Shown: positions 5,610 to 28,095 of the stretch, one piece after another
How the letters are laid out: every line of letters starts with the position of its first letter
Numbering within the stretch: the stretch's first letter is position 1
Source: Nitrospirales bacterium
GTDB lineage: Bacteria; Nitrospirota; Nitrospiria; Nitrospirales; Nitrospiraceae
NCBI GenBank assembly: GCA_965223605.1
Contig: CBDCXA010000005.1
Span: 254,473-318,472 of the forward strand
Direction: 5' to 3'
Length of the DNA: 64,000 bases
Notes under the pieces: model-generated
What the model was told of the DNA's origin: nothing
Seen by the model: the letters and a program-made list of their open reading frames with translations, nothing else
Databases searched by the model: none
Program-made: the position numbers and the translations under genes

Positions 5610-6281
5610 ATGCCTAGACGTCCTCGACTTGCCGCTGGCGGTATCGCCTACCATGTGTTGAATCGCCGAATCGGACGACTCCCACTCTTTCAAAAACCCC
5701 AAGACTACAAGGCTTTTGAACGGATTCTCCATGAAGCCTATCAACAAACCGGTCTCCGCATCACGACCTATTGCCTTATGCCCAACCATTGGCATCTTTT
5801 GTTATGGCCTCGATACGATGAAGAACTCTCTGAAGCCATGCGCTGGATCACCGTCACCCATACCCAAAGATGGCATGCTCGACGCCAGACTTCCGGTACA
5901 GGTCCGATCTACCAAGGGCGGTTTAAATCTTTTCCGGTACAACGGGATGAACACTTTCTTACCGTTTCACGCTATATTGAACGAAATGCGTTGCGGGCGG
6001 ACCTGGTAGAGCGAGCGGAGGAGTGGCAATGGTCTAGCCTCTGGCGAAGACGCCAAGATGACCCTAGGCTGACCACATGGCTGAGTCCATGGCCCGTTGA
6101 GCAACCAAAGGATTGGCTTGCCCGTGTGAACCGTCCAGAACGAGCCTCTGACCTCGATACGTTGCGTACTTGTGTCCAGCGGGGTCGACCCTATGGAACC
6201 GATGCCTGGATTACTCGAACCGCCAAACGCTTATCCCTTGAATCAACCTTACGTCCTCGAGGACGGCCCAAAGGGTCATGA
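5610..6281 (+). CDS. IS200-like Y1 (HUH) transposase, REP-associated tyrosine transposase (RAYT)-like
   Basis: 223 aa. HUH motif in LMPNHWHLLLWP, a catalytic Tyr context in SRYIERNALRA, and a conserved N-terminus (IAYHVLNR). Confidence 0.8.
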   Translation: MPRRPRLAAGGIAYHVLNRRIGRLPLFQKPQDYKAFERILHEAYQQTGLRITTYCLMPNHWHLLLWPRYDEELSEAMRWITVTHTQRWHARRQTSGTGPIYQGRFKSFPVQRDEHFLTVSRYIERNALRADLVERAEEWQWSSLWRRRQDDPRLTTWLSPWPVEQPKDWLARVNRPERASDLDTLRTCVQRGRPYGTDAWITRTAKRLSLESTLRPRGRPKGS

Positions 6282-11053: not shown

Positions 11054-11575
11054 ATGAATCGATCTAACCATATAAATTATTTAACGAAGTTGTTATCTGG
11101 TTTCCGGAACAGGTACTCCATCATTCTAAGCGTGGTTATCACGTTCACTCTTCACTTTACCAACCTGCCGGCGAGCATGGGAGGCCTGGTTCAGCTAGGA
11201 GAACACAACAAACAACACCTATTAGGGGTAGACTCCCAAAACTTAGGTAACTCTACGAGTATTGAGTCTATTCCAGATGAACCGGTCGAGTACGACCCCA
11301 AGGAAGTCAAGTCATATTATGACTGGAGAAATGACATGTTTTTCAGAGAGTTTGATTTAGAAGGTATGGGACGTGTAGATTTTATGACAGCCAGACGGAC
11401 TTACAAGGTATCACTAAACGAATATGGTAATTCCGTTGTGATGACCATGCCCTATCCTCTTTTCTATTGGGTTGATTCTAATAAGAATGGTAAATTCGAG
11501 CCTAAACTTGGTGAAATGTGGTCCGATCCCGAGGAAGACGGTGTCAATGGGAATGAAAATCTTTATGGTATTTAG
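11054..11575 (+). CDS. hypothetical protein (N-terminal hydrophobic segment)
   Basis: 173-aa ORF with one predicted N-terminal helix. No family recognised. Confidence 0.45.
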   Translation: MNRSNHINYLTKLLSGFRNRYSIILSVVITFTLHFTNLPASMGGLVQLGEHNKQHLLGVDSQNLGNSTSIESIPDEPVEYDPKEVKSYYDWRNDMFFREFDLEGMGRVDFMTARRTYKVSLNEYGNSVVMTMPYPLFYWVDSNKNGKFEPKLGEMWSDPEEDGVNGNENLYGI

Positions 11576-12076: not shown

Positions 12077-12466
12077 GTGCTCATGGAAGGCACAGAACTC
12101 GCCTTTGAATATTTGTCGAGATATTCCGGCATTTTACTCTTTATTGCGATCGCCGGATTATTTGGAGTGGGCACGTTGCTCATCAGCTATTTCGTGCAAC
12201 CCAAATTTCCGGAAGCTGAAAAATTATCAACGTACGAATGTGGCAGTGAACCTTTTTCAGATGCCAGAATGCCCTTTCCCGTTCGGTATTATATTTTTGC
12301 CATGATGTTTGTGATTTTTGATATCGAGGTAATTTTTCTCTATCCCTGGGCCATTTCATTTAAAAAGATCGGCATTATTGGGTTAGTTGAAATGATGATT
12401 TTCATAGGACTTTTTGTGGTGGCTTATGTTTATGCTTGGCGCAAAGGGGCGTTGGAATGGGACTAA
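12077..12466 (+). CDS. nuoA: NADH-quinone oxidoreductase subunit A
   Basis: YECGSEPF and FDIEVIFLYPWA motifs. The start is GTG at 12077 or ATG at 12083. Confidence 0.9.
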   Translation: MLMEGTELAFEYLSRYSGILLFIAIAGLFGVGTLLISYFVQPKFPEAEKLSTYECGSEPFSDARMPFPVRYYIFAMMFVIFDIEVIFLYPWAISFKKIGIIGLVEMMIFIGLFVVAYVYAWRKGALEWD

Positions 12467-12556
12467 GGTCTGCCCTGTAGATGTTGGAGACGTTACCTGA
12501 TTGGCGATAGAGGCAGGTGAAAGTCTTACGGACCGTCATTTTTTAAAGGATAACCC

Positions 12557-13072
12557 ATGGGATTAATACAAATAGGGTCACATGAGAAAGACGGTGATGT
12601 GGATGTCATTACGACTACCATAGAAAAGGCCGTGAACTGGGCTCGGAAAGGGTCATTATGGCCGATGACCTTTGGACTCGCCTGTTGCGCCATTGAGATG
12701 ATCGCGGCCGTCTCATCTCGTTACGACATGGATCGATACGGTGCCGGCGTCTTTCGTGCCTCTCCCCGACAATCAGATTTAATGATTGTGGCAGGCACCG
12801 TCTGCCGGCGCATGGCACCTGTTATTCGGAAAATCTATGACCAAATGCCCGAACCCAAATATGTCATTGCCATGGGATCCTGTGCGACGTCCGGGAATAT
12901 CTATGACAGCTATAGTGTCGTGCAAGGCGTCGATCGTTTTGTGCCGGTGGATATCTATGTACCTGGATGTCCCCCCACTCCGGAAGCTTTATTTGACGGC
13001 ATCTTGAAGTTGCAAGACCGTATCATGGAAAAACGCGTATTTTTAAAGCAACCCAAGGAAGTACGAGCGTAA
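12557..13072 (+). CDS. nuoB: NADH-quinone oxidoreductase subunit B
   Basis: [17 protein letters not shown] and PGCPP cluster-N2 motifs. Confidence 0.95.
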
Positions 13073-13078
13073 ATATTC

Positions 13079-13576
13079 ATGCATCTCTTAGCCGAACGCA
13101 TCCAGCAGGAATTTCCGCAAGCCTTCATCAAGGCAGTGGAATGGCGCGGTGATGTCGCGGTAACTGTTCAACGTGACGCACTCCATGATGTCGCTACCTT
13201 TCTTCGTCGTGATTCAGAAATGGACTTCGATTATATCGTCCACGTCAGTTCAGTAGATTGGCCCGATGACGAAGAACGATTTGAGGTCGTTTATGAATTG
13301 TATTCTATACGGCACAAACAACGAATTCGGCTCAAGGCGCGCGTCCCGGAACAAGATTGTACCGTCACCTCTCTGACCGATCTGTGGAAGGGTGCGGATT
13401 ACATGGAGCGGGAAGTCTATGACATGATGGGCATCCGCTTTTTGAACCATCCCGATCTTCGACGAATTCTTATGCCTGATGATTATGATGAAGGCTATCC
13501 CTTACGCAAAGACTTTCCGCTAAGAGGCAAGGGGTGGCGGGATACCTTCGACTTTCTTGATGAACCCAGTCAGTAA
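13079..13576 (+). CDS. nuoC: NADH-quinone oxidoreductase subunit C
   Basis: 165 aa. ERFEVVYELYS and EREVYDMMGIRF are typical of the 30-kDa subunit. Confidence 0.9.
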   Translation: MHLLAERIQQEFPQAFIKAVEWRGDVAVTVQRDALHDVATFLRRDSEMDFDYIVHVSSVDWPDDEERFEVVYELYSIRHKQRIRLKARVPEQDCTVTSLTDLWKGADYMEREVYDMMGIRFLNHPDLRRILMPDDYDEGYPLRKDFPLRGKGWRDTFDFLDEPSQ

Positions 13577-13619
13577 CAAACAGGCGGGCTACCTGACCGT
13601 GGAGGCAGAATAGAACAGC

Positions 13620-14882
13620 ATGGAACGCGGACCAAAACCCTTTGAAGACCAGCGGACGACGATATATAAAGTCGATCCCGAGAATCCAGAGAGTCCGACC
13701 CTTCCGACTCTCCGCACGGAAGAACTTCTCCTCAACATGGGGCCACAACATCCGAGTACCCACGGTGTGCTCAAGGTCGTGCTCGAGCTGGAAGGGGAAC
13801 GATTGGTCAAATCCACCCCAGTCTTGGGGTTTCTACATCGGGGAGTGGAGAAATTAGCGGAAGATGGAACCTACCACCAGTTTATTCCCCACACCGATCG
13901 TCTCGATTATGTCTGCGCCATGTACAACAACTTTGCCTATTGTCGAGCCGTTGAAAAACTCATGGACATCACAGTCCCTGAACGCGCTGAATACTTACGC
14001 ACCATCGTCGCCGAAATACAACGGATCATCGGTCATCAATTCTGGTTAGGGACACAAGCCTTGGATATCGGGGCTATGACGGTTTTTTTCTATACCTTCC
14101 GAGATCGAGAAATTTTACTCGATTGGTTCGACGAATTATGCGGGGCACGACTGACCACAAGTTGGTATCGAATCGGCGGGGTCGAACGTGACTTCACTCC
14201 CTCTCTCCTTTCCAAAGTTCGGGCCTTTATCGATTATTTGCCAAGTAAGATTGACGAATATCAGGTCTTTTTAGAGAAAAATAGAATTTGGTTAGGACGA
14301 ACCAAGGGGGTGGCGGTGATTTCGGCAGAAGATGCCTTAAGCTTTGGCTTAAGTGGTCCAACACTTCGAGGCTCTGGCGTTGATTATGATTTACGGAAAT
14401 ACGAACCCTATAGCGCCTATGGCAAATGTGAATTCAGCGTGCCGATTGGGAAAAACGGAGATACCTATGACCGCTATTGGATTCGCATTATGGAGATGTA
14501 CGAGAGCGTCAAAATCATTCGTCAATGCCTAGAACAAATGCCGGAGGAAGGGCCAATCATGGCCGACGTGCCTAGTGTGACGTTCCCGCCAAAAGAACGC
14601 GTCTTCACAAACCTAGAAAGTATGATTCAACAATTTAAGCTCTTTTCCCAAGGATTTGATGCCCCACCTGGGGAAATTTATTGCGGCACCGAAGCCCACA
14701 AGGGAGAACTCGGGTTTTATATTGTGAGCACCGGAGGCGGAAAACCCTATCGATTAAAAATCCGAGCCCCTTCCTTTATACATATGGGAGCTTTTGACCA
14801 TATGGCGCGTGGCTATATGATTGCCGATGCCGTCACGATTTTCGGAACGTACGATATTGTGATGGGAGAATGTGACCGGTAG
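13620..14882 (+). CDS. nuoD: NADH-quinone oxidoreductase subunit D
   Basis: 420 aa. LNMGPQHPSTHGVL and the C-terminal DIVMGECDR. Confidence 0.95.
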   Translation: MERGPKPFEDQRTTIYKVDPENPESPTLPTLRTEELLLNMGPQHPSTHGVLKVVLELEGERLVKSTPVLGFLHRGVEKLAEDGTYHQFIPHTDRLDYVCAMYNNFAYCRAVEKLMDITVPERAEYLRTIVAEIQRIIGHQFWLGTQALDIGAMTVFFYTFRDREILLDWFDELCGARLTTSWYRIGGVERDFTPSLLSKVRAFIDYLPSKIDEYQVFLEKNRIWLGRTKGVAVISAEDALSFGLSGPTLRGSGVDYDLRKYEPYSAYGKCEFSVPIGKNGDTYDRYWIRIMEMYESVKIIRQCLEQMPEEGPIMADVPSVTFPPKERVFTNLESMIQQFKLFSQGFDAPPGEIYCGTEAHKGELGFYIVSTGGGKPYRLKIRAPSFIHMGAFDHMARGYMIADAVTIFGTYDIVMGECDR

Positions 14883-14921
14883 GATGACCGACTCACGTAT
14901 TTTGTTGTTGAGGTTAGACTT

Positions 14922-17636
14922 ATGGCATTGAAACCCGTGACGACCCCCGATGCGGAGGTCGCCTCCATTGAGTTATCGATTGATGGACAAACTCTGTCTG
15001 CGAAAGACGGAGTGTCGCTCTATGACGTAATCTCTACGACCGGAAAAGTCGTCCCGGCCATGTGTTACCACTACACCTTCGATCCCTTTGGTTCCTGTGG
15101 TATGTGTCTCGTCATGGTCGAAGGGAAAAAGGCACCGGTTCGCTCATGCACAGCTAAAGCGACCGCCGGGATGGTGGTCCGCACCGAAGGCGATGACTTG
15201 TTTGCTGCCAGAAAAAAGGCCGTTGAAAAACACCTTTCCGTCCATCCCCTTGATTGCCCAGTCTGTGATGCCGATGGCCATTGTGAACTCCAAGACATGG
15301 CGTTTAAACATGAGGTCACCAATTTAGCCAATGCCAAACAGAAATTAATTCCTGAAGATACCAGAAGTCTCGTTCTTGACTTCAACATGAACCGCTGTAT
15401 CGCCTGCGCGGAATGTATCAATATTTGTAAAGACGTCTTGATGATCGATGCCCTGCAATTTATGAAAAAGGGCGGGTTTAACCAAGTCGTCCCCAAAGGC
15501 GATCAACCTCTCTCCTGCGAATTTTGCGGCGACTGCCTGGCGGTCTGCCCTGTCGGAGCGATTACGAATAAATATTCCAAGTACCTCTATAAACCTTGGC
15601 AGCTGAAGAAAACGACCACCACCTGTAACTATTGTGGGGACGGCTGTCAGATGATCTTGGAAACCAAAGATACCGAAGTGGTACGAGTCACTTCCACACT
15701 GTCCTGGAAAAATAAGTGGGGAGAGCGGACGGACACCGCCCAAGGGCACGGTGGCATTTGTGTCCGCGGCCGATTTGGATTTCAACACCTGGATAGTTCC
15801 GCACGACTCACCCAACCCCTGAAACGCGAAAAAGGTGAACTGGTTGAGGTCGCCTGGCTTGACGCAGTCCAAAGTATTATTGATCAATTGACCGCCATAA
15901 AAGAGACCCATGGCCCGCAGGCCATAGCGGGACTGATCACCGCTCGTTGTACCAACGAAGAACTCTATCTTTTCCAAAAATTCATGCGGGTGGCCATCGG
16001 CAGTAATCATATTGATAGTAGTGCACGCTATGGCCATATGAATTTTGTCCATGCCATGCAGAAAGCCATTGGCATCGGACGCTCTCAGAATAGTTGGGAA
16101 GATATTACCAAGGCCAAAGCCATTCTCCTGGTCGGTTCAAATATTACGGAGACCAATCCCCTGACAGCCGTCCGTATCAAGGAAGCCATTCGCGTCTATA
16201 AAGCTCAGGTGATGGTCGTCGACTCGGCCCAGTCCCCCATCTCTCAACTGGCCTCACACCCCATCCTCGTCCGCCCGGGAACGGAATCGCTCTTGGTGCA
16301 AGGCCTAGTGAAAACCACCATTGAACAAGACCTGGTTGACCGGGAGGTGGTGAATAAACATCCTGAGGCTTTTGCCTCCCTGCAAAAGGCTGTGGGACAA
16401 ATCTCGTGGGACAGCATTACCAACATGACCGGAATCAACGAACAGGTTCTCAAAGAAACTGCTGCTATTTTTGCTGAAGCCCCTCAAGCAGTCATTATCT
16501 GCGGAGAAGGTATCGTTCGCCAGAGAGAGGGATTTGACCATGTGTTGGATCTTGTGGATCTGGCCTGGATTACCGGAAAGCTCGGAAAACCAGGATGCGG
16601 CATTAATACCGTTACGGAAGAAGTGAACGAACAGGGTGCGGTGGATATGGGCGTGTCTCCGGAATTTCTTCCGGGTCAAGTGCGCTTTAACGACCCCGAA
16701 GCCAGAAATAAATTCACGCGGGGGTGGGACACCGAACTTCCACCGGTAAACAGTGGCGCCTCCCTGATGAAAATACTCCAGCAATGTCAGACGGGAGAAA
16801 TCAAAGCCCTGTATCTCATTGGGGAAAATCCCCTGGCCACACTCCCCAGTTCCTTTAATGTCCAAGCTGCCCTTGAAGGAGTCGAGCTCCTGATCTGCCA
16901 GGATCCCTTTCTCACGGAAACCGGGAAGCTGGCACATTATGTCCTTCCGGCCTGTACCTATGCGGAAAAGAACGGGACCTTTACTAACTTAGAAGGGAAG
17001 GTTTTACGTATTCGTGAATCGATGGATCCCCTAGGGGAGAGCCTGCCGGATTGGCACATCCTGACGGCCATAACCAATGGGTTAGGGTACCCCTTGGAAT
17101 ATGAATCATCCCAAGATATTCAGAATGAAATCATGAAAGTCCTTCCGGGATACTATAACCTGGGACAACCCCGCGCGGTGACTCCAAATCCAAACCCGTA
17201 TCTCTCGAATGGGTATAGCCGGGATGTCGCCGTTCGCTATCACGCAACAGGGGAACGTCTGAAATCGGAACTTTCACAAGCGACGGGCAGTGAAGAATTT
17301 CGTCTCGTGATGGGCCAGGAACTCTATCATTCCGGAAAAATGTCAACACAAGCCTCGGGCTTGATAAAAATTACTTCCCACGTGGGTAGTTTGCATATGA
17401 ATGTCGAAGACTTAGAGCGGTTAGGCCTACAGGAGGGTCAGAAGGTGCGCGTGACAACTGAGAAAGGATCTCTGGTCCTTCCCGTCACTCCCAACCTCTC
17501 CATGCGTCCAGGATTATGTTTTTTCCCAGAACATTTCAATACCCCTCCGGTCAAAGATCTCATGCCGCTGGAAGTGGATTCCAAAACGGGTGTCCCCTAT
17601 TTCAAGTTGGGCACCGTGTCTCTGGAGAAGGCCTGA
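14922..17636 (+). CDS. nuoG: NADH-quinone oxidoreductase subunit G-like (2Fe-2S, 4Fe-4S clusters plus molybdopterin-oxidoreductase fold)
   Basis: 904 aa. 2Fe-2S Cys pattern (CYHY..CGMC..SC), HPLDCPVCDADGHCELQD (N5-type), CIACAEC..C and CEFCGDCLAVCP, then CNYCGDGC..C and RCTNEELY of the molybdopterin domain. Confidence 0.9.
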   Translation: MALKPVTTPDAEVASIELSIDGQTLSAKDGVSLYDVISTTGKVVPAMCYHYTFDPFGSCGMCLVMVEGKKAPVRSCTAKATAGMVVRTEGDDLFAARKKAVEKHLSVHPLDCPVCDADGHCELQDMAFKHEVTNLANAKQKLIPEDTRSLVLDFNMNRCIACAECINICKDVLMIDALQFMKKGGFNQVVPKGDQPLSCEFCGDCLAVCPVGAITNKYSKYLYKPWQLKKTTTTCNYCGDGCQMILETKDTEVVRVTSTLSWKNKWGERTDTAQGHGGICVRGRFGFQHLDSSARLTQPLKREKGELVEVAWLDAVQSIIDQLTAIKETHGPQAIAGLITARCTNEELYLFQKFMRVAIGSNHIDSSARYGHMNFVHAMQKAIGIGRSQNSWEDITKAKAILLVGSNITETNPLTAVRIKEAIRVYKAQVMVVDSAQSPISQLASHPILVRPGTESLLVQGLVKTTIEQDLVDREVVNKHPEAFASLQKAVGQISWDSITNMTGINEQVLKETAAIFAEAPQAVIICGEGIVRQREGFDHVLDLVDLAWITGKLGKPGCGINTVTEEVNEQGAVDMGVSPEFLPGQVRFNDPEARNKFTRGWDTELPPVNSGASLMKILQQCQTGEIKALYLIGENPLATLPSSFNVQAALEGVELLICQDPFLTETGKLAHYVLPACTYAEKNGTFTNLEGKVLRIRESMDPLGESLPDWHILTAITNGLGYPLEYESSQDIQNEIMKVLPGYYNLGQPRAVTPNPNPYLSNGYSRDVAVRYHATGERLKSELSQATGSEEFRLVMGQELYHSGKMSTQASGLIKITSHVGSLHMNVEDLERLGLQEGQKVRVTTEKGSLVLPVTPNLSMRPGLCFFPEHFNTPPVKDLMPLEVDSKTGVPYFKLGTVSLEKA

Positions 17637-17660
17637 AAAAAGGGAAGGTAGGAAATTCTA

Positions 17661-18224
17661 ATGGGCGATGGCGTGAAAAAAATACTCGATGCGATGATGT
17701 TCCGCGAAATTTGGGATGCCATGAAGGTGACCTTCAAGCATATGTTCTATCGCCCCATTACCTTCCAATACCCGAGAGAAGAACGAACCCTACCCGACAC
17801 ACACCGAGGAGCCTTGGGTCTCCTTCGATACGACGATGGCGTGGAACGTTGTGTGGGTTGCGACCTTTGCGAAGTGGCCTGTCCGTCGCATTGTATCAAG
17901 GTCATTAGTGAGGAAGATCAATCGCTGCCGCTTCAACGCTACGCGAAAGAGTTTTATATCGATATTACCAAATGCGTATTCTGCGGATATTGTGTGGAAG
18001 CCTGTCCCGTCAATGCGCTCGCTATGACCAAAATGTATGAATATTCAACCCACGATAAACGTACCTTACTCTTTGACAAGGCCCGACTCTACGATATTGG
18101 CGAACGACATTTAGACGATGCGAAAAAATACCTGTACGCCCATAATCAAGAAAAAGATGAACAAGCAAGCCATGACTATCGCTACTTTTTCCCACAATCC
18201 ATCAGCAAAAGTAAGTCCACGTAA
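17661..18224 (+). CDS. nuoI: NADH-quinone oxidoreductase subunit I
   Basis: Two ferredoxin-type motifs: CVGCDLCEVACP and CVFCGYCVEACP. Confidence 0.95.
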   Translation: MGDGVKKILDAMMFREIWDAMKVTFKHMFYRPITFQYPREERTLPDTHRGALGLLRYDDGVERCVGCDLCEVACPSHCIKVISEEDQSLPLQRYAKEFYIDITKCVFCGYCVEACPVNALAMTKMYEYSTHDKRTLLFDKARLYDIGERHLDDAKKYLYAHNQEKDEQASHDYRYFFPQSISKSKST

Positions 18225-18230
18225 AACGCT

Positions 18231-18764
18231 ATGATGCCTGTATTTTTTGCCTATTTTTCCCTCATGAGTATGATCACGGGTGTGCTCACCGTGGGCCTGA
18301 AAAATCCGGTCCATTGCGGCATTGCCTTGCTTGCACTCCTTTTACATGTTTCGGGACTCTTCTTAATGCTGAACGCCGAATTTATTTGGGCCGTTCAAGT
18401 CATCGTGTATGCCGGTGCCATTCTCGTGTTGTACCTCTTCGTCCTCATGCTGCTGAATTTAAAAACCGTCGAAGGCTATTTTCATAAACATGTGGTCTAT
18501 TTTTTGATCCCCGCCTGTCTCGGGACCTTGTATATCGTGGGACTCTTGGTGATGACCCCCTTTGAAGGCGAGAAGGGGACCACAACAGCAGACATGGTTG
18601 TTTCAAGTGGCAGCACCTTTTCCATCGGCATAAAAATGTTTAGTGAATATTTGCTCCAGTTTGAAATCGTCGGTGTCTTCCTTCTGGGAGCCATCATTGG
18701 AGCGATTGTACTGGCAAAGACCCCCCAGCAAACGGACGAACCGGTAGAACGGACAAAGCCATAA
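18231..18764 (+). CDS. nuoJ: NADH-quinone oxidoreductase subunit J
   Basis: 177-aa membrane protein. NAEFIWAVQVIVYAGAILVLYLFVLMLL is typical of NuoJ. Confidence 0.9.
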   Translation: MMPVFFAYFSLMSMITGVLTVGLKNPVHCGIALLALLLHVSGLFLMLNAEFIWAVQVIVYAGAILVLYLFVLMLLNLKTVEGYFHKHVVYFLIPACLGTLYIVGLLVMTPFEGEKGTTTADMVVSSGSTFSIGIKMFSEYLLQFEIVGVFLLGAIIGAIVLAKTPQQTDEPVERTKP

Positions 18765-18768
18765 CTCC

Positions 18769-19071
18769 ATGATTCCTCTTTCAGCCTATATCGCAGTCAG
18801 TACAGTGCTTTTTGCGACAGGACTGGTCGGTGTGTTGATACGTCGAAATTTCATTATCGTGCTGATGTCAGTTGAAATTATGCTGAATGCCGCCAATATC
18901 AACCTGGTGGCCTTTTCCTACTACCTCGACTCGATGGCCGGACAAATTGTGGCTCTTTTTGTCATTGCGATCGCGGCGGGGGAAGCCGCTGTCGGATTGG
19001 CCATTATTATTGTGGTGTTCAGAGGAAAAATATCCACCAATGTGGATGAAATGAATTTTTTGAAGTGGTAA
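18769..19071 (+). CDS. nuoK: NADH-quinone oxidoreductase subunit K
   Basis: 100 aa with the SVEIMLNAANINLVAF and AAGEAAVGLAI motifs. Confidence 0.95.
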   Translation: MIPLSAYIAVSTVLFATGLVGVLIRRNFIIVLMSVEIMLNAANINLVAFSYYLDSMAGQIVALFVIAIAAGEAAVGLAIIIVVFRGKISTNVDEMNFLKW

Positions 19072-19072
19072 C

Positions 19073-21067
19073 GTGATCGATACACTTATTCTGCTAATTC
19101 CGCTGTTTCCGCTGGTCGCAGTCTTACTGAACGGGCTGTTGGGCAGCCGGTATTCCCAAGAGTTTGCTCATCGACTCGCCTGGGGATCGGTGGGACTGTC
19201 GTTTCTCTGTACCCTGGCCGTCTTTGCCGACACACTGGCCAATGGAATACCGAGAGAAGTGGTCGCCTATCGATGGATTTTCGGCACCGACTTCACCATC
19301 AACCTCGCTTTTTTGATTGATCCACTCACCTGCATCATGCTCCTGGTTATTACAGGGGTCGGATTTCTCATCCATCTCTATTCCGTAGGGTATATGCACG
19401 GGGAAGAAGGATTTACACGATTCTTCACCTATATGAACCTCTTTATGGTCTCGATGCTCCTGCTGGTTATGGGGAATAACTACCTGGTCCTTTTTATTGG
19501 GTGGGAGGGAGTTGGCCTTTGTTCTTATTTATTGATCGGGTTTTATTTTGACCGTGTCTCGGCAGCCAAAGCTGCTACCAAAGCATTTGTGGTCAACCGA
19601 ATTGGAGATGCCGGATTTTTACTGGCTATTTTTCTGGTATTCGTCAATTTCGGAACCCTGGACTATACCGAGGTGATGGCCCGTGCGGGAGAGTTATCTC
19701 CGACCATGGCCTCATGGATCGCCCTCTGTCTCCTCATCGGGGCGGTGGGTAAATCTGCACAGATTCCTCTCTATACCTGGCTCCCCGATGCAATGGAAGG
19801 CCCGACACCTGTCAGTGCTCTTATCCATGCCGCGACAATGGTAACTGCAGGGGTCTATATGATCGTCCGAAACCATGTGATCTTCGACATGGCTCCTATG
19901 GTTATGACGGCTGTGGCCTGGATTGGAGGACTCACGGCCTTATTTGCGGCCACCATCGGTCTCGTTCAAAACGATATTAAACGCGTCTTGGCTTACTCCA
20001 CCGTGAGCCAATTGGGGTATATGTTTCTAGCCTGTGGAATCGGGGCCTATACCGCCGCGGTGTTTCACCTCATGACCCATGCCTTTTTTAAAGCACTCCT
20101 CTTTCTGTCAGCCGGGTCTGTGATCCATGCACTTGGGGGTGAACAAGACATAAGAAAAATGGGGGGACTCAAGGATAAAATTCCCTGGACCTTCTGGGTC
20201 TTTCTGATTGGCACATTGGCTATCGCGGGTATTCCTCCCCTGGCAGGATTTTGGAGTAAAGATGAGATTTTGGCCCACGCCTTTATCAACCATCACTATG
20301 AATTGTATGCACTGGGAGCCATTGCGGCATTGCTGACATCATTTTATATGTTCCGATTGACGTATCTGACCTTCTTTGGGGAGTCTCGAGTCGAAGCCGA
20401 GACGGCCGCACATATTCATGAATCACCCATGGTGATGGTTGGACCACTTGTCGTGTTAGCGGGCCTCTCGTTTTTAGGGGGATTTCCGGGAGTTCCACCT
20501 GAAAACGGATGGTTTCATCACTTTCTCCATCCGGTCACCGCAGTAGCTGGAGCAGAGCACCACGTGAGTCCTCTCACCATTATTGGGTTAATGGCGGTGG
20601 CCACCGCAATCGCATTGATTGGTTGGGCCGTGGCGCATTATTTCTACAGTATTCGGCCGAAGACTGGAGACCAATTGGCCACCCGATTCTCTGGAGCCTA
20701 CGACACACTCCTCAATAAGTATTATGTGGATGAAGCCTATGATGCAGCTATTGTAGAACCCACTAAAATGATTGGGCAGGCCTGGGATTGGTTTGATCGG
20801 ACCGTCATCGATGGAGCCGTCAAAGCGGTTGCCTCCTTCACCCAGAGTAGCTCCAACATTACCGTCTGGATTGAAAATCATGTCGTGTATGCCGGCCTGA
20901 ATCTTGTCGGCTATGGGAATCATCTCGTGGCGCGGTCCTGGCGTAAACTGCAATCCGGCATGGTCCATCATTATGCTGCGATCATTGTCGGCGGGTTATT
21001 TGTGTTGGTGCATATTGTGTTTGTTCTCTGGACCGGCTCCTCCTGGTTTGGAGCCATGATTCGGTAG
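19073..21067 (+). CDS. nuoL: NADH-quinone oxidoreductase subunit L (long form, 664 aa)
   Basis: GTG start 2 nt after the nuoK stop. WEGVGLCSYLLIGF and GKSAQIPLYTWLPDAMEGPTPVSALIHAATMV motifs, plus a long C-terminal region. Confidence 0.9.
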   Translation: MIDTLILLIPLFPLVAVLLNGLLGSRYSQEFAHRLAWGSVGLSFLCTLAVFADTLANGIPREVVAYRWIFGTDFTINLAFLIDPLTCIMLLVITGVGFLIHLYSVGYMHGEEGFTRFFTYMNLFMVSMLLLVMGNNYLVLFIGWEGVGLCSYLLIGFYFDRVSAAKAATKAFVVNRIGDAGFLLAIFLVFVNFGTLDYTEVMARAGELSPTMASWIALCLLIGAVGKSAQIPLYTWLPDAMEGPTPVSALIHAATMVTAGVYMIVRNHVIFDMAPMVMTAVAWIGGLTALFAATIGLVQNDIKRVLAYSTVSQLGYMFLACGIGAYTAAVFHLMTHAFFKALLFLSAGSVIHALGGEQDIRKMGGLKDKIPWTFWVFLIGTLAIAGIPPLAGFWSKDEILAHAFINHHYELYALGAIAALLTSFYMFRLTYLTFFGESRVEAETAAHIHESPMVMVGPLVVLAGLSFLGGFPGVPPENGWFHHFLHPVTAVAGAEHHVSPLTIIGLMAVATAIALIGWAVAHYFYSIRPKTGDQLATRFSGAYDTLLNKYYVDEAYDAAIVEPTKMIGQAWDWFDRTVIDGAVKAVASFTQSSSNITVWIENHVVYAGLNLVGYGNHLVARSWRKLQSGMVHHYAAIIVGGLFVLVHIVFVLWTGSSWFGAMIR

Positions 21068-21094
21068 TGATGAAAATTTCCAAGATGTAATCGT

Positions 21095-22669
21095 ATGCTC
21101 GAAGAACTGACATTTGGATTTCCCTTATTAAGCCTCCTGCTCTTCCTTCCGTTAGGTGGAGCGGTCGTGCTGTGGATTATTCAAGAAGAAGATACCGCCA
21201 AACATATTGCGTTAGGTGTCTGCGCCCTTGAATTTTTCTTATCGGTAGCCCTCCTGTGGTACTTCATTCCAAACTCGGCTGCCATGCAATTCACCGAGCA
21301 TATTGATTGGATACCGCCTCTTGGAATTAGTTACCACCTGGGTGTTGATGGTATCAGTGTCTTGTTTGTCGCACTCACGGCCTTTCTTAACCTCCTGATC
21401 GTCTTGAACTCTTGGGACAGCATTCGACACCAGGTCAAGCAATACCTCATGGCCCTGCTCGCGTTGCAGACCACCACCATCGGAATTTTTGTCAGTCTCG
21501 ATTTGATCCTGTTCTTTGTGTTTTGGGAACTCATGCTGATTCCAAGTTACTTCCTCATTAAGCTTTGGGGAACAGGATCAGGGCGACAATATGCCGCGCT
21601 CAAGTTTGTGCTCTATACCCTGCTCGGCAGCGTCTTTATGTTGGTGGGAATTGCTCTATTAAACTTAAATTACCATGAGTGGGCAGTCACACATGGGGTG
21701 GAACCATCCTATTCATTTGACCTTCTAGACCTTCTGACCGTACCAATCGCCACGAGCCAACAGATACTTATCTTTTGGCTGATCTTCCTCGGCCTGGCTT
21801 TCAAGGCCCCAATGTTCCCCTTTCATACCTGGCTGCCGGATGCCTTGATGGAAGGTCCCATTGGAATGGCCGTGGTCCTGGCCGGAGTGAAATTGGGCAC
21901 CTATGGATTTATGCGACTGAGCCTCCCGTTACTTCCAGATGCCTCCCAACATGGGACCGTCGTCCTCATTATGATGTGCCTGGCCCTGATCGCAATTCTT
22001 TATGGAGCCTTTATTGCGATTATTCAACCGGACTTCCGACGATTACTAGCCTATAGCAGCATCAGCCATTTGGGATTTGTGGTCCTTGGTTTATTTGCCT
22101 TGAACTTTCAAGGCTTGCAGGGCAGTCTCCTGACCATGATTAATCTTGGCTTTAGCACGGCCGGCCTATTTTTTATTGCCGGGTTCCTCTATACCCGCCA
22201 ACACAGTACCGATATCTCCTCATTTGGAGGAATGGCCAAATACACCCCATTGCTCGCCAGTTTTTTATTGATCGTAGGTTTGGCCTCCATCGGGTTACCG
22301 GGCACAAATGGATTTGTTGGAGAATTCCTGATATTGCTGGGCGCATTTAAATCTTGGTGGGTCTATGGCGCCATCGCGGTACTCGGGGTTATTTTTAGTG
22401 CGGCATATTTTCTCTGGTATTTTGAGCGATCGATGTTTGGGCCCTTGGGAAAACACATTTCCCACACCATACAGGATCTCCGAGCCGCTGAGATGACGAT
22501 CGTCCTCTCCCTCACCATTATGATTTTTTGGATCGGGCTTTATCCTTCACCGTTTTTGCGAATTATGAACGGGTCGGTGCAAGCATTAGTGGAGCGCTTG
22601 GAACATGGAGCCACGCAGGGACTCGCCGTCGTCAAACCCAGACACGAACAATTGAGGGAAGATGGCTGA
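21095..22669 (+). CDS. nuoM: NADH-quinone oxidoreductase subunit M (copy 1)
   Basis: 524 aa. FWELMLIPSYFLIKLWG, KAPMFPFHTWLPDA and LAYSSISHLGFV motifs. Confidence 0.9.
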   Translation: MLEELTFGFPLLSLLLFLPLGGAVVLWIIQEEDTAKHIALGVCALEFFLSVALLWYFIPNSAAMQFTEHIDWIPPLGISYHLGVDGISVLFVALTAFLNLLIVLNSWDSIRHQVKQYLMALLALQTTTIGIFVSLDLILFFVFWELMLIPSYFLIKLWGTGSGRQYAALKFVLYTLLGSVFMLVGIALLNLNYHEWAVTHGVEPSYSFDLLDLLTVPIATSQQILIFWLIFLGLAFKAPMFPFHTWLPDALMEGPIGMAVVLAGVKLGTYGFMRLSLPLLPDASQHGTVVLIMMCLALIAILYGAFIAIIQPDFRRLLAYSSISHLGFVVLGLFALNFQGLQGSLLTMINLGFSTAGLFFIAGFLYTRQHSTDISSFGGMAKYTPLLASFLLIVGLASIGLPGTNGFVGEFLILLGAFKSWWVYGAIAVLGVIFSAAYFLWYFERSMFGPLGKHISHTIQDLRAAEMTIVLSLTIMIFWIGLYPSPFLRIMNGSVQALVERLEHGATQGLAVVKPRHEQLREDG

Positions 22670-24257
22670 ATACACACTCCTGTATATTTTATTCGCACCC
22701 TTTGTCGGATCGATTGCGCTGATCTTCGTCTCGAACCGCCAACACCTCCTCGTGCGATGGATTGCGGCCGCGTCGGCATTTATTCCCTTGGTGGCCTCTT
22801 TCTATTTATTTTATGCCTATGACCCCATCCAAGGCGGGTATCAATTTATACAACGCTACGAATGGTCTCCAGAACTCGGGATTTCCTTTTACCTAGGCGT
22901 CGATGGAATTGGGACTCCGCTCGTGCTCGCGTCCTGTATTCTCCTTTTTGCGGGAATTTTTATTTCTTGGCATGTCAAAGATCGCGCCAAAGAATTTTAT
23001 ATCTTTATTTTGATTTTGGCGGCCGCCACGATTGGCGTGTTCATGTCCCTGGACCTTTTCTTCCTGTATTTCTTCTATGAAATGTCAGTCCTTCCGATGT
23101 ACCTCTTGCTGGGGATGTGGGGAAGCCATACCAAGAGCTATTTAGAGATGACAGACCCAGAGGGACTGAAACAGCGTGACTCGGTGAGTTTCATCTTCAA
23201 CTTTACGAAAAACAGTAAAGAATACGCAGCCATGAAACTCGTTCTCTTCCTCTCAGCAGGGGCCGTGGTCGCCCTCATGGGCATTCTCCTTATTTATAAA
23301 GGTTCTGGCCTCTATACCTTTGACATTCTGGTCTTGAGAGAACAGGCGCATTTTTCAGAACCCATGGCCACTCTCATTTGGCTGCTCATCTTTTTTGGAT
23401 TTGCCTCTATCGCTCCGATTTGGCCACTCCATTCCTGGTCGCCTGTCGGACATGCGGCAGCCCCGGCAGCCACGAGTATGTTACATGCCGGCGTGCTCAT
23501 GAAGTTAGGCCATTTCTCGATCATTCGAGTGGCCTTTGAAATTCTTCCGGATGCCACTAGAGAACTCATGCCTATCGCCGCCATTTTGTGTGTGTTCAGC
23601 ATTATCTATGGTGGGTTTGTGGCCTTCAATGCCCGAGACACTAAGTATGTGATTGGCTATTCCAGTTCTTCGCATATGGGATATGTCTTTCTCGGGATGG
23701 CCGCGTTGGACTATATGAGCTTAACCGGGGCGGTGCTGTACATGTTCGCCCATGCCTTGGCCACCGGCATGTTGTTCGCGATGGCAGGGTGGGTGTACGA
23801 CCAAACCCATACCAGGGATATTCCGTCGCTCGGGGGACTCTCAAACCGTATGCCTTTTATTGCCGGCTGCTTTATTATTGCCTGCATGGCCTCTGTCGGA
23901 ATGCCCGGCACGGTGAATTTTATTGCCGAAGTGATGATCATTGTCGGAAGTTGGAATAAATATCCTTTTCAGGTTCTCGTCGCCGTCATTGGAATCGTGC
24001 TCACAATGGCCTATCTCTTTAAGATGATGCGTGGGGTTTTCTACGGGCCCATGGACCAGCAATATAGCCATACCCATGATGCGGTAGGATGGGTCGATCG
24101 TGCCCCTCTCTTTATTATGATTGTCTGTAGTATTGGGTACGGACTGTTCCCCCTACACTTTCTCAAAGTCATTCAAAGCGGAGTTGATCCCCTGTTGGCA
24201 CGGATCATCGAAGTCGCGCCTCTCGTCTCTCAACATACGGGAGGCCTGGTACCCTAG
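22662..24257 (+). CDS. nuoM: second NuoM-like antiporter-like subunit (copy 2, with loop insertion)
   Basis: 531 aa. It overlaps copy 1 by 8 nt. FYEMSVLPMYLLLGMWG, PLHSWSPVGHAAAP and IGYSSSSHMGYVF are the same motif set as copy 1 but diverged. An extra segment of about 25-30 aa follows the MWG motif. Confidence 0.85.
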   Translation: MAEYTLLYILFAPFVGSIALIFVSNRQHLLVRWIAAASAFIPLVASFYLFYAYDPIQGGYQFIQRYEWSPELGISFYLGVDGIGTPLVLASCILLFAGIFISWHVKDRAKEFYIFILILAAATIGVFMSLDLFFLYFFYEMSVLPMYLLLGMWGSHTKSYLEMTDPEGLKQRDSVSFIFNFTKNSKEYAAMKLVLFLSAGAVVALMGILLIYKGSGLYTFDILVLREQAHFSEPMATLIWLLIFFGFASIAPIWPLHSWSPVGHAAAPAATSMLHAGVLMKLGHFSIIRVAFEILPDATRELMPIAAILCVFSIIYGGFVAFNARDTKYVIGYSSSSHMGYVFLGMAALDYMSLTGAVLYMFAHALATGMLFAMAGWVYDQTHTRDIPSLGGLSNRMPFIAGCFIIACMASVGMPGTVNFIAEVMIIVGSWNKYPFQVLVAVIGIVLTMAYLFKMMRGVFYGPMDQQYSHTHDAVGWVDRAPLFIMIVCSIGYGLFPLHFLKVIQSGVDPLLARIIEVAPLVSQHTGGLVP

Positions 24258-24259
24258 CC

Positions 24260-25741
24260 ATGACCTTTGACCTGACCCTATCCAGCGCAGACTTGTTTCT
24301 GCTCCTTCCTGAGATTTTTCTCACGTTGTGGCTTTGCATTGTTCTCGCGGTTGACTTCTCCATTCCACGCTTCCCCCAAAAGCAATTAGCCTATCTAAGC
24401 GTGGCGGGTCTTGTCGGAACCCTGGCTTGCTTGATGTGGTTTATTCAATCGGGCACGCAAGGCACGCTCTTCCACGATATGTTTGTGGTCGATGGGATCG
24501 CCATATTTTTTAAATTATTTATTGTCGCGTCCACAGCCCTGGTCATTTTAGCCTCTATCGATTATGTGAACCGCTTTAAATTTTTTAAGGGGGAATATTA
24601 TTTTCTGGTCCTCATGTCCGCCCTGGGTATGATGTTCATGGCCTCCGCCAATGACCTGCTCTCCCTGTTTGTCACGTTGGAGTTTGCCACCTTTGGCTTC
24701 TATGTTCTGGTGGCCTATTTACGTGATGACTCCGCCTCCAATGAAGCCGGCATTAAGTTTTTTATTTTGGGAATTTTTGCGGCGGCGTTACTCGCCTATG
24801 GAATCAGTCTGGTGTATGGCGGCACAGGAAAACTGGTCTTCTCAGATATGAACATCACGACCCCCACGCCAGCCCTAACCATCGGGTTTTTGCTCATATT
24901 TGCGGCTCTTGGATTTAAAATCGGAACTGTTCCATTCCATTCGTGGATCCCTGATACCTATCACGGAGCCCCAACTCCCGTGACCACCTTTCTCTCCATT
25001 GTTCCCAAAGCCGCTGCCTTTGCAATTTTGATCCGTATGTTTTTTGTCGCCTTGGCCTCATTCAAACCTGCCTGGGTGCTCTTGTTAGCAGGCGCGTCGA
25101 TTTTGTCTATGACCTATGGGAATATCGTCGCGATTGCCCAAAAAAATATTAAACGGTTGCTGGCCTATTCAGGTATTGCGCAAATTGGAAATGTACTCAT
25201 CGGCTTAGCGGCTGGAACGAAGATGGGAAGCGATGCGATCTTGTTTTATCTCCTCACCTATATGTTTGCCAACCTTGGAGCCTTTGCCATCGTCATCGCC
25301 GTCAGTCAAATAATTCGAAGTGATGAAATTGAGGATTACAACGGCCTGAATCGACGCTCTCCCTTTTTGGCATTCTCGATGCTGATCTTTTTACTTTCTC
25401 TCGCCGGCGTGCCTCCCTTAGCTGGCTTTATTGGAAAACTGTATATTTTTGTCGCCGCCATCAAGGAAGAATTGTACGTGCTCTTGACGGTGGGGCTGAT
25501 CAATATCGTGATTTCGATGTATTATTATTTAATCGTCGTCAAAAAAATGTACATCAATGAGCCAGATAATCCTTCAAAACTGACAGTTTCCGGTCCCATG
25601 AAACTGGTGGTGTACATTAGTTTAGCCGGAACCTTACTTCTCGGAATTTATCCCAAACCCTTTATCGAGTGGATTGTTTCCACCACGATGCTCTTTTCGA
25701 ATCTCGCCGGCCCCACTGCCTCACTTCCCGGACTAGGCTGA
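24260..25741 (+). CDS. nuoN: NADH-quinone oxidoreductase subunit N
   Basis: 493 aa. LEFATFGFYVLVAY, KIGTVPFHSWIPDTYHGAPTPV and LAYSGIAQIG motifs. Confidence 0.9.
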   Translation: MTFDLTLSSADLFLLLPEIFLTLWLCIVLAVDFSIPRFPQKQLAYLSVAGLVGTLACLMWFIQSGTQGTLFHDMFVVDGIAIFFKLFIVASTALVILASIDYVNRFKFFKGEYYFLVLMSALGMMFMASANDLLSLFVTLEFATFGFYVLVAYLRDDSASNEAGIKFFILGIFAAALLAYGISLVYGGTGKLVFSDMNITTPTPALTIGFLLIFAALGFKIGTVPFHSWIPDTYHGAPTPVTTFLSIVPKAAAFAILIRMFFVALASFKPAWVLLLAGASILSMTYGNIVAIAQKNIKRLLAYSGIAQIGNVLIGLAAGTKMGSDAILFYLLTYMFANLGAFAIVIAVSQIIRSDEIEDYNGLNRRSPFLAFSMLIFLLSLAGVPPLAGFIGKLYIFVAAIKEELYVLLTVGLINIVISMYYYLIVVKKMYINEPDNPSKLTVSGPMKLVVYISLAGTLLLGIYPKPFIEWIVSTTMLFSNLAGPTASLPGLG

Positions 25742-26092: not shown

Positions 26093-27469
26093 ATGCAATG
26101 GAAATGGTCGATTGAAAACCGAGTCCTGGCGGGGTTTGTCCTTGTCCTGGCTATCTTGCTCGGTATTGGCGTTGTCGCCTATAAGAATACCGTGCTCTCG
26201 GTCCAACATACCGAACGGGACAGGAAGGGACGCGAACTCCTTAAATATCTCGAACTCACCTTACAGTCGGTCGAGGATGCTGATTGGGGGTACCGTCGAT
26301 TTCTTGTGACAGGTGAGCAGAGCTATCTCACTGCCTTTGGGAAATCACAAGAACAAACTCCAACCTACCTCAAGTTAATGCACGATCTCTTTTTGGATTC
26401 CCCAACAATACAAGCTCAGCTTAGTTTATTAGAACATCATATTGATACGCTCCTTCAATCTGGGCAAGAAGGCATCCACCTTCGTCAACAAACCGACTTT
26501 CAAGGGATCCAACATCTCCTCAACTTTACGGATCGCAATAATAATATGGAAGCGCTTCGATTACGTGTCAAAGAAATCAAACAACACGAACATCAGACAC
26601 TCAAAGAACGAACATTTGAATCAATGGAAGGGACCCGAACGACCATTATTCTTTTGGCCCTTGGGACGTTTCTACAGTTTGTGCTGTTGTCGGCCGTCTA
26701 TTATCTCATCCACCATGATATCCGGTCTCGGCGACGAGTGGCGGCAGAACTTCTTCAACGCGGAAAACAGTTAGAAGCCGCCAATCAAGAACTCGAAGCC
26801 TTTAGTTACTCTGTCTCCCATGACCTTCGAGCCCCACTCCGCCATATCGATGGATACGCCTCGTTACTGGAAAAAAATGTTGGGACATCTCTGACTGAAA
26901 AGGGACAACGATACCTCGAGACCATTTCAGAATCGGCAAAGCAAATGGGCAGTCTGATCGACAATCTGTTGGTTTTCTCAAGGATGGGTCGTTCTGAACT
27001 GGCTCAAACACCAATTAATATGGAGCAGTTGGTCAAGGAGGTCCTCCATACTCTTCGTCATGACATCAAAGGTCGTGATATCTCGTGGACAATCGGGCCT
27101 CTCACTGACGTCCAAGCCGACCCAGCCATGCTTAAACAAGTCCTCGTGAATCTGATTGCCAATGCCATTAAATTTACAAAAAGCCGTCCTCTCGCACAAA
27201 TCGAAATAGGTAATGTCACAGAATCTTCCAAAGACATCGTCACTTTTGTTCGAGACAATGGGGTCGGTTTTGATATGCAATATGCTGACAAATTGTTTGG
27301 TGTCTTTCAACGACTTCATCGAGTCGAAGAATTTGAAGGTACGGGGATTGGATTAGCCAATGTGCGACGAATCATCCATAGACATGGGGGACGCACGTGG
27401 GCGGAAAGCCGTCCGAACGAAGGAGCCACCTTTTTCTTTTCGCTTCCCATTCATGGTGAGACCGGATGA
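26093..27469 (+). CDS. sensor histidine kinase with periplasmic CHASE3-like domain
   Basis: N-terminal TM helix, then the CHASE3-like DADWGYRRFLVTGEQSYL. H-box FSYSVSHDLRAPLRHI and HATPase motifs (DNGVGF, GTGIGLA). Confidence 0.85.
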   Translation: MQWKWSIENRVLAGFVLVLAILLGIGVVAYKNTVLSVQHTERDRKGRELLKYLELTLQSVEDADWGYRRFLVTGEQSYLTAFGKSQEQTPTYLKLMHDLFLDSPTIQAQLSLLEHHIDTLLQSGQEGIHLRQQTDFQGIQHLLNFTDRNNNMEALRLRVKEIKQHEHQTLKERTFESMEGTRTTIILLALGTFLQFVLLSAVYYLIHHDIRSRRRVAAELLQRGKQLEAANQELEAFSYSVSHDLRAPLRHIDGYASLLEKNVGTSLTEKGQRYLETISESAKQMGSLIDNLLVFSRMGRSELAQTPINMEQLVKEVLHTLRHDIKGRDISWTIGPLTDVQADPAMLKQVLVNLIANAIKFTKSRPLAQIEIGNVTESSKDIVTFVRDNGVGFDMQYADKLFGVFQRLHRVEEFEGTGIGLANVRRIIHRHGGRTWAESRPNEGATFFFSLPIHGETG

Positions 27470-27912
27470 GCCATCGCAAGCATCTTCTGATCGCAGATGA
27501 CAATCCCAAAGATATCGAGTTAGCCCTTGCCGCTCTCGAAGACACTCGCATTTTTCAGGAGATCACCGTCACTAGAGATGGCGTGGAAACCCTCGACTAC
27601 CTCTTTCGTCGAGGTGAGTATACAGACCGGGAAGTGGGGAATCCTGATTTGATGTTTCTTGACCTCAAAATGCCGAAAGTGGATGGTCTCCAAGTGCTTA
27701 AGACCATAAAATCTGACCCTTATCTCAAACTCATTCCGGTCGTGATGCTGACCTCTTCCCGTGAACCCCAAGATTTGACAAAATGCTATGCCCTTGGTGC
27801 AAATGCCTATATCGTCAAACCTGTTTCCTTTCAGGTTTTTGTTCAGGCCTTGACCCATGCCGGAAACTTCTGGGGACTCGTGAACGAGGCACCTCCTACC
27901 TCACCATCTTAA
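27466..27912 (+). CDS. CheY-like response regulator (receiver only)
   Basis: 148 aa. LLIADDNPKD, LMFLDLKMPKVDG and AYIVKP motifs. It overlaps the kinase stop. Confidence 0.85.
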   Translation: MSHRKHLLIADDNPKDIELALAALEDTRIFQEITVTRDGVETLDYLFRRGEYTDREVGNPDLMFLDLKMPKVDGLQVLKTIKSDPYLKLIPVVMLTSSREPQDLTKCYALGANAYIVKPVSFQVFVQALTHAGNFWGLVNEAPPTSPS

Positions 27913-28095
27913 CTTCAATCGTCATGATACCGGAGAGTCAGAGCCTCTCCGGTACAAGAGTCCGTCCTCTCTTATCTCCTGTAGGTCACATCTGTTCGAC
28001 TTTGAACATTTGACGCATTGGCAATGCCTTTCTTATACTTCATACATCACCCTGTTCACGTTCAACAGGCAATCTTGAGAGTCAAACATCTACGT

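Follow-up and report, generated by a model that had tools for sequence, protein, structure and literature searches.

A Nitrospiraceae operon for 2M-type complex I with two adjacent NuoM-type subunits, the second of which lacks the conserved TM7 lysine

Complex I of the 2M type, in which NuoM occurs twice, is already known from Nitrospira. In Mundinger et al. 2019, complex CI_1 of N. moscoviensis is assigned to clade 3 within the 2M type of complex I (PMC6606698). CI_1 has a duplicated NuoM, a lengthened NuoL and an enlarged nuoG, and is without NuoE, NuoF and NuoH (PMC6606698). A 2M cluster without nuoE, nuoF and nuoH and with an enlarged nuoG is also described in PMC8115632. According to a 2025 comparison, the 2M cluster is present in all cultivated Nitrospiraceae, and nuoC and nuoD as two genes is a trait of the Nitrospirales clusters (PMC12342949). 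The role proposed for the complex is electron transport in the reverse direction, quinol to ferredoxin, with a higher proton stoichiometry, which is still presented as a hypothesis in modeling and quinone papers of 2021 and 2025 (PMC8407350, PMC12324825). Here, we analyze a complex I operon at positions 12077-25741 (+ strand) of a 64,000-nt stretch of Nitrospirales DNA, contig CBDCXA010000005.1, the whole of which is called the window below. The operon carries two adjacent nuoM-type genes, whose products are designated M and M′. The locus is a Nitrospiraceae orthologue of the clade 3 2M complex I (Chadwick et al. 2018), that is, of a system already known. The initial annotation had pointed to the 2M complex I of that study, an attribution borne out by the papers that cite it (PMC6606698, PMC12342949, PMC9040806).

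The sequence features by which clade 3 is recognized are all found at the locus, namely two NuoM together with NuoL and NuoN, a long lateral helix HL in NuoL, an enlarged G subunit with no NuoE, NuoF or NuoH, and synteny. The operon reads nuoA-B-C-D-G-I-J-K-L-M-M′-N and consists of twelve closely packed + strand open reading frames (ORFs), as given by the ORF listing and by Pfam and NCBIfam models. These are exactly the twelve genes, in the same order and at the same coordinates, that the initial annotation had listed. The genes and the main features within them are as follows, with lengths in amino acids (aa) and transmembrane helices abbreviated as TM.

12077..12466, + strand: nuoA, 129 aa; PF00507, 2.6e-39
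12557..13072, + strand: nuoB, 171 aa, carrier of cluster N2; PF01058, 1.8e-30
13079..13576, + strand: nuoC, 165 aa, a gene apart from nuoD; PF00329, 3.6e-47
13620..14882, + strand: nuoD, 420 aa, quinone-site subunit; TIGR01962 NuoD, 545 bits (cutoff 459)
14922..17636, + strand: nuoG-like gene, 904 aa, FdsA-type Fe-S/molybdopterin-fold protein; TIGR01591, 478 bits, and TIGR01973, 369 bits
17661..18224, + strand: nuoI, 187 aa; NF004538 NuoI, 140 bits (cutoff 135)
18231..18764, + strand: nuoJ, 177 aa; PF00499, 2e-31
18769..19071, + strand: nuoK, 100 aa; PF00420, 8.3e-28
19073..21067, + strand: nuoL, 664 aa, with lengthened lateral helix HL; NF005141 NuoL, 752 bits (cutoff 556)
20786..20866, + strand: insertion in helix HL of NuoL, about residues 572-598, from the comparison of anchor distances; its exact place within HL depends on the alignment
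21095..22669, + strand: nuoM (M), 524 aa, with the canonical ion pair; TIGR01972, 537 bits
22662..24257, + strand: nuoM′ (M′), 531 aa, without the TM7 lysine; TIGR01972, 434 bits
23124..23204, + strand: 27-residue insertion S155-F181 of M′ in the TM5-TM6 loop, from alignments with M and E. coli NuoM
23409..23411, + strand: codon of I250 in M′, at the site of the TM7 lysine (K234 of E. coli NuoM); Ile in 80/80 orthologues
24260..25741, + strand: nuoN, 493 aa; TIGR01770 NuoN, 427 bits (cutoff 333)

From nuoA to nuoN, the intergenic spacers are 90, 6, 43, 39, 24, 6, 4, 1, 27, -8 and 2 nt. The negative value is the overlap of M and M′, ATGGCTGA, in which the ATG start of M′ shares 8 nt with the stop of M and is preceded by a GAGGGA ribosome-binding site. 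Promoter and terminator scans at the ends of the operon gave counts not above those of shuffled sequence.

M′ is a NuoM-type subunit. With the hidden Markov model (HMM) TIGR01972 NDH_I_M (cutoff 263.8), M scores 536.9 bits and M′ 434.5 bits; the E-values of these assignments are 1e-128 or smaller, which excludes chance. Pfam PF00361 is common to the NuoM, NuoN, MrpD and Hyf families, and one could therefore suppose that M′ is a NuoN-, MrpD- or Hyf-type subunit wrongly named NuoM. However, the best non-NuoM models reach only 149 bits or less (MrpD), 137 bits (HyfB) and 130 bits (NuoL) on M′, and in BLASTP comparisons M′ aligns with M over the whole length (30% identity, 243 bits) but with N and L over part of the length only (81 and 87 bits, respectively). 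A neighbor-joining tree was computed for L, M, M′ and N together with E. coli NuoL/M/N, HyfB/D/F and 119 representatives drawn from a search of 1.84 billion proteins. In this tree, 99/100 bootstraps set the NuoM-type sequences, including M and M′, apart from NuoN, NuoL and HyfB/D/F. L groups with its E. coli counterpart NuoL, and N does so with E. coli NuoN (100/100). M falls within the canonical NuoM clade alongside E. coli NuoM, while M′ lies within the NuoM family in a sub-clade of its own (89/100). The misnaming is thus so improbable that we give it practically no weight.

The predicted structure agrees with this assignment. The AlphaFold2 model of M′ has a predicted local distance difference test score (pLDDT) of 93.1 and a predicted template modeling score (pTM) of 0.92. 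In a fold search with this model, the PDB chains at ranks 1-21 are all NuoM, ND4 or NdhD, with template modeling scores (TM-scores) of 0.84-0.89, and the chains of MrpD, NuoL and NuoN come behind them; the TM-score against Paracoccus NuoM is 0.88. The initial annotation had proposed two adjacent NuoM-type ORFs, on which HMM, tree and fold search agree, and had named a grouping of M′ with NuoN, MrpD or HyfB-type proteins as a reason to abandon the proposal, a grouping that tree and fold search do not show. It had further taken both M genes to be free of pseudogene features, and indeed both are intact, their alignments with E. coli NuoM covering the full length. The NuoM motifs it had listed are present in M (FWELMLIPSYFLIKLWG, HTWLP, YSSISHLG) and in M′ (FYEMSVLPMYLLLGMWG, HSWSP, YSSSSHMG), except that M reads YFL and not YLL. 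Because NuoL and NuoN, each recognized by its own model, are present besides the two NuoM, the operon encodes four antiporter-like subunits, which is also the number that had been counted at first.

A fourth antiporter-like subunit would lengthen the membrane arm, and helix HL of NuoL is lengthened as expected if it spans such a subunit. The distance between the conserved anchors that flank HL is 75 residues here and 46 in E. coli (+29), and the 75-residue distance recurs in 61/67 Nitrospiraceae NuoL orthologues, the other 6 being without detectable anchor motifs. Compared with Paracoccus NuoL, HL is about 25 residues longer, and there are about 40 extra C-terminal residues relative to Thermus Nqo12. 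This is consistent with the 26-aa HL insertion reported for the Nitrospira 2M NuoL (PMC9040806). At 1.5 Å per residue, a gain of 27-29 residues corresponds to ∼40 Å, roughly the width of one added subunit.

The arrangement is strongly conserved. In the set of 80 related Nitrospiraceae species loci that was used for this comparison, the order (A)BCD-G-IJKL-M-M′-N without H, E and F is found in 80/80, as far as the contigs extend. M′ is 79-87% identical across the 80 species, the identity being 87% to the best GTDB species representative and 84% to Ca. Nitrospira defluvii (FP929003.1). The median identities are 81.7% for M′, 77.7% for N, 75.0% for L and 72.5% for M. Since M′ has the highest value of the four antiporter-like proteins, strong purifying selection acts on it, and it is no decaying copy.

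Locus L052 (6420-9935) comes from a nanopore-derived Nitrospira metagenome-assembled genome (MAG) in which nuoL and nuoM are split over reading frames, probably by indel errors and not as pseudogenes. The apparent loss of M at this locus was accordingly set aside as frame breaks that are probably due to sequencing error.

The NuoE/F and NuoH subunits that a canonical 14-subunit complex has encoded with it are found neither in the operon nor in the window. The gene order given in the initial annotation leaves the three genes out as well, though without remark. E. coli NuoH, NuoE and NuoF give no tblastn match (E ≤ 1e-5) in the operon, in the 64-kb window or in the 80 related loci. There is also no nuoH among the window ORFs of 300-380 aa, which encode NAGPA-like, Sel1, epimerase, LpxC, HlyD, AAA, histidine kinase, FtsX and inositol monophosphatase proteins. 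These missing matches would fit a cluster that is an incomplete or decaying remnant unable to form an enzyme. Such a remnant is very improbable, considering that the twelve ORFs are all intact and translationally coupled, that the order without H, E and F persists across 80 species, the median protein identities being 66-95%, and that the N. moscoviensis orthologue has a transcript level above the median (PMC6606698).

The catalytic residues argue against a remnant as well, as all those checked in B, D, I, A, J, K, L and N are kept. The residues of the canonical quinone site, cluster N2 and E-channel are present in NuoD, B, A, J and K. In NuoD, H48 and Y97 stand where E. coli NuoCD has its ligands of the quinone headgroup, H224 and Y273. 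NuoB keeps 4/4 N2 cysteines (the tandem C43-C44, C109 and C138) and NuoI 8/8 cluster cysteines. D82 and E84 of NuoA are equivalent to the E-channel residues D79 and E81 of E. coli NuoA, Y60 and E81 of NuoJ to Y59 and E80, and NuoK keeps E36 and E72. In the antiporter-like subunits, E145, D179, K227, H252, H332, H336, K340, K396 and D397 of NuoL agree with E. coli NuoL, and NuoN keeps E141, K220, K250 and K393.

The sole gene between nuoD and nuoI, where nuoE-F-G-H would be, encodes the G subunit. G scores 478 bits with the Fdh-alpha model TIGR01591 (cutoff 666) and 369 bits with the NuoG model TIGR01973 (cutoff 470), in both cases below the cutoff. Its best PDB matches are the FdsA chains 9wxb_B and 6tg9_A, over the full length and with 392-405 bits, so that G is nearer to FdsA than to any solved NuoG. 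FdsA, the alpha subunit of NAD-dependent formate dehydrogenase (PDB 6tg9, 9wxb), has the molybdopterin fold in common with G, as well as the 2Fe-2S and 4Fe-4S motifs at the N terminus. The Cys motifs of G are intact, for one 2Fe-2S cluster, a His-Cys3 cluster and 4Fe-4S clusters.

The two proteins differ at the active site. FdsA has the catalytic Cys and Arg, whereas in G a Gly (ARYGH, residue 371) is aligned to the Cys of FdsA "ARVCHS", which we take to be the molybdenum ligand, and the Arg aligned in "LRGQNNVQG" is lost. RYGH is found in 58/59 G orthologues. G thus has neither the Cys/Sec ligand nor the catalytic Arg of a molybdenum or tungsten formate dehydrogenase. A working formate dehydrogenase feeding the complex was considered for G and is ruled out by the loss of these two residues. 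As judged from its sequence, G is an Fe-S protein of formate-dehydrogenase ancestry without a molybdenum active site. Because the catalytic Cys and Arg are lost, in 58/59 orthologues, we regard it as an electron-transfer scaffold.

The two NuoM differ in their charged residues. The canonical NuoM set consists of the TM5 Glu, TM7 Lys, TM8 Lys, bridging His and TM12 Glu (PMC9271201), and it is incomplete in both M′ (TM7 Lys to Ile250) and M (H348 to Leu). In M′, Ile250 replaces the lysine of the TM5-Glu/TM7-Lys ion pair and Val replaces the Asp of the WLPDA motif, while the TM5 Glu E140, the TM8 Lys K281, the bridging H338 and H364 and the TM12 E423 are kept, all of this in 80/80 orthologues. 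M keeps E145, K237, K266 and E410, with the ion pair included, and has Leu at the sites of H248 and of the bridging H348 of E. coli NuoM in 74/74 Nitrospiraceae orthologues. It also shows a 2-residue deletion just ahead of the central TM8 lysine (AGV--KLG). The extra segment after the MWG motif of M′ that had been noted initially is real and amounts to 27 residues, although it spans 23124-23204 and not about 23127-23219. The insertion directly follows MWG and gives a loop of 38 residues versus 10-11, a length constant in 80/80 orthologues; in the model it is a low-confidence loop with pLDDT 56-81.

By its alignments and its place in the tree, M′ is not a recent in-operon duplicate of M. The initial annotation had called the second copy diverged, which holds in view of the 30% identity to M but understates the case, M′ coming from a separate, old NuoM lineage. 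In this lineage, which is a large one, the site of the TM7 lysine (E. coli K234) is occupied by Leu, Ile or Phe, and the motif reads HTWSPDGH; we refer to its members, M′ among them, as K-less. In a search with a profile of the K-less clade, the top proteins have Leu at the TM7 lysine site in 119/119 cases, with the motif HTWSPDGHVAAP. Those with names belong to Moorella thermoacetica, Clostridium pasteurianum, C. beijerinckii, other Bacillota and Chloroflexi (proteins P0276-P0394). A strict scan found no basic residue specific to the K-less clade at ≥70% conservation.

At locus L087 (10001-11509), a K-less protein is the sole NuoM of a nuoABCDHIJKLMN cluster that stands beside pyruvate:ferredoxin oxidoreductase genes; this is the one single-M cluster seen whole, the clostridial and Chloroflexi NuoMs being known here from their protein sequences alone. 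The use of a K-less NuoM as a marker of second-M subunits only was considered and is ruled out by its occurrence as the sole M in L087 and by its wide distribution in clostridia and Chloroflexi. For the same two reasons, the missing TM7 lysine does not speak against a working M. Among 2M-type clusters, the order of a canonical, lysine-containing M followed by a K-less M′ and N is found in 3/3, namely in the Nitrospiraceae and at loci L084 and L086. L086 (1282-13279), on a groundwater-type contig, is a 2M-type cluster in which nuoH is present and several small ORFs separate the canonical M from the K-less M′.

It is possible, and we put this forward tentatively, that M′ was recruited from this distinct ancient K-less lineage and is not a duplicated pump module. 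If this is true and has not yet been reported, an antiporter-like subunit would work with its TM5 Glu paired in trans to the TM12 Lys of its neighbor, or, alternatively, the assumed stoichiometry of five protons per electron pair (H+/2e−) would be wrong.

The absence of the lysine also bears on whether M′ pumps at all. M′ could be a structural or regulatory spacer that translocates no protons, serving, for example, in lateral proton conduction, loop docking or ion selectivity, in which case the complex would stay at ∼4 H+/2e−. The Ile at the K234 site and the Val at the Asp of WLPDA in 80/80 orthologues speak for this, as the Glu/Lys ion pair is regarded as conserved in each pumping subunit (PMC9271201), and the low-confidence insertion loop may become ordered only with a partner. 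However, 80/80 M′ orthologues retain the TM5 Glu, the central TM8 Lys, the two bridging His and the TM12 Glu, none of the other three antiporter-like subunits is as conserved as M′, and a K-less NuoM is the only M in L087 and widespread in clostridia and Chloroflexi, where it presumably forms a normal module. We consider a spacer function unlikely, since it is weakened by the K-less type being the sole M in L087 and by the other pumping residues being kept in M′.

The locus holds a four-antiporter gene set, a longer HL, intact quinone-site and E-channel residues and no NADH module, and all this is strongly conserved. The overall explanation that we consider probable is a clade 3 2M complex I in which four antiporter-like subunits raise the H+/2e− and which is linked to ferredoxin. 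NuoH would come from a canonical nuo operon at another place in the genome, and electrons would be exchanged not with NADH but with a low-potential carrier such as ferredoxin, docking on G/I. From the gene order, the physical order of the membrane subunits would be N-M′-M-L. In such an arm, the TM5 Glu of M′, left without its lysine, would lie opposite the TM12 Lys of NuoN. Toward M, the TM12 Glu of M′ would meet a complete Glu/Lys pair, like in an ordinary M-L interface. The N-M′-M-L order is favored because the alternative order sets two glutamates together without a lysine. The fourth subunit would raise the stoichiometry from 4 to ∼5 H+/2e−, as in the published hypothesis, and electrons could then be pushed by the proton-motive force from quinol up to ferredoxin, which serves the reductive tricarboxylic acid (TCA) cycle of the nitrite oxidizers.

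Several points weigh against this explanation. The stoichiometry, direction and electron partner of the 2M complex are all inferred. There is no close PDB relative of M′, L or G, and together with the 2021 and 2025 papers that call the function hypothesized, this fits the statement of the initial annotation that no such complex has been characterized. nuoH is absent from the operon and from the 64-kb window. Regarding the energetics, 5 H+/2e− at a proton-motive force of 0.18 V supports ∼450 mV. Starting from methyl-plastoquinone at about +55 mV (PMC12324825), electrons would reach about −395 mV, which is short of the reductive TCA cycle ferredoxins at ≤−500 mV unless the redox pools are strongly poised. 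Finally, the Glu/Lys ion pair is a conserved element of every pumping subunit in current models (PMC9271201). With M′ lacking the ion-pair lysine and M lacking the bridging H348, four modules could fail to give five protons.

The direction of electron flow has to be weighed separately. Complex I chemistry is reversible, and the enzyme might run mainly forward, as an oxidoreductase between ferredoxin (or another low-potential donor) and quinone that yields more energy per electron pair during growth on H2, formate or storage compounds. That the NADH module is gone and the Fe-S-rich G is kept agrees with such a function, and so does the kinship of M′ to the NuoM of anaerobe complexes without E, F and G, one of which adjoins the pyruvate:ferredoxin oxidoreductase genes mentioned above. 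Nevertheless, all cultivated Nitrospiraceae have the cluster, and their core way of life depends on ferredoxin that is reduced with electrons of a high-potential donor (PMC12342949, PMC12324825). Moreover, N. moscoviensis CI_1 is expressed above the median during nitrite oxidation, and ferredoxin reduction has been proposed for it (PMC6606698). A mainly forward direction seems doubtful to us, if somewhat less so than the spacer function of M′, and the two directions are not mutually exclusive.

The operon has several neighbors in the window. Directly 3′ of nuoN, at 26093-28983, lie genes for a CHASE3 histidine kinase, a response regulator and a NAGPA-like protein, which are syntenic in 56-59/80 Nitrospiraceae loci. 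The kinase and response regulator are possibly a regulator of the operon. Upstream of nuoA, a 173-aa ORF at 11054-11575 has no Pfam match. Farther away, two genes for Na+/H+ exchanger family proteins (PF00999; 443 and 415 aa) overlap in tandem at 1434-4009. At 5610-6281, a 223-aa protein with an IS200-like Y1 transposase domain (PF01797) is encoded beside priA (6770-9133, − strand). At 33071-35757 (− strand), the gene for a multicopper oxidase (431 aa) is directly upstream of that for an outer-membrane efflux protein (OEP, 464 aa).

Nitrite-oxidizing Nitrospira bring electrons from a high-potential donor up to the ferredoxin used in CO2 fixation, and the foremost candidate for this step, which forms part of the nitrogen and carbon cycles on the global scale, is the 2M complex I. 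The complex also lends itself to a test of how many protons a complex I membrane arm can move. The locus in the window is one further orthologue, ordinary for Nitrospiraceae, and not a new kind of system. The remaining interest lies in an enzyme class that is biochemically and structurally uncharacterized, for which the residue picture obtained here (a K-less M′, an M without the bridging His, a G without the formate dehydrogenase site and a nuoH that would come from elsewhere) should be useful in mutagenesis and structural work.

NuoA, B, D, I, J, K, L, M and N agree with their counterparts in canonical complex I (E. coli Nuo, Thermus Nqo, Paracoccus) in fold and in catalytic and channel residues. 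The canonical enzyme has three antiporter-like subunits, whereas the operon described here encodes four, with an HL that is 27-29 residues longer. It further differs in having no NuoE, NuoF or NuoH, a G nearer to FdsA, an M′ without the TM7 lysine and an M without His348. The NuoMs of L087 and of the clostridia and Chloroflexi share with M′ the NuoM sub-lineage, the hydrophobic residue in place of the TM7 lysine and the change of WLPDAH to WSPxGH. L087 differs from the present locus in that the K-less protein is the sole NuoM, nuoH is present and the 27-residue loop is missing.

Nearer to the present operon is Complex_I_3 of Ca. Manganitrophaceae, which has five antiporter-like subunits (PMC9040806) and is matched by locus L084. 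On this metagenome contig (4838-13095), D-G-I-J-K are followed by two MrpD-like genes, M, M′ and N, with no nuoH. The identities to the proteins of the window are 53% for M, 56-57% for M′ (K-less, with a loop of +30) and 58% for N, but L084 has the two MrpD-like genes instead of NuoL, whereas the window has one true NuoL. The closest systems are the clade 3 2M complexes of Nitrospira, represented by N. moscoviensis CI_1 and N. defluvii. With these, the operon shares the gene order, the split nuoC and nuoD, the absence of nuoE, nuoF and nuoH, the enlarged nuoG and the long HL, and it shows no difference of substance from them.

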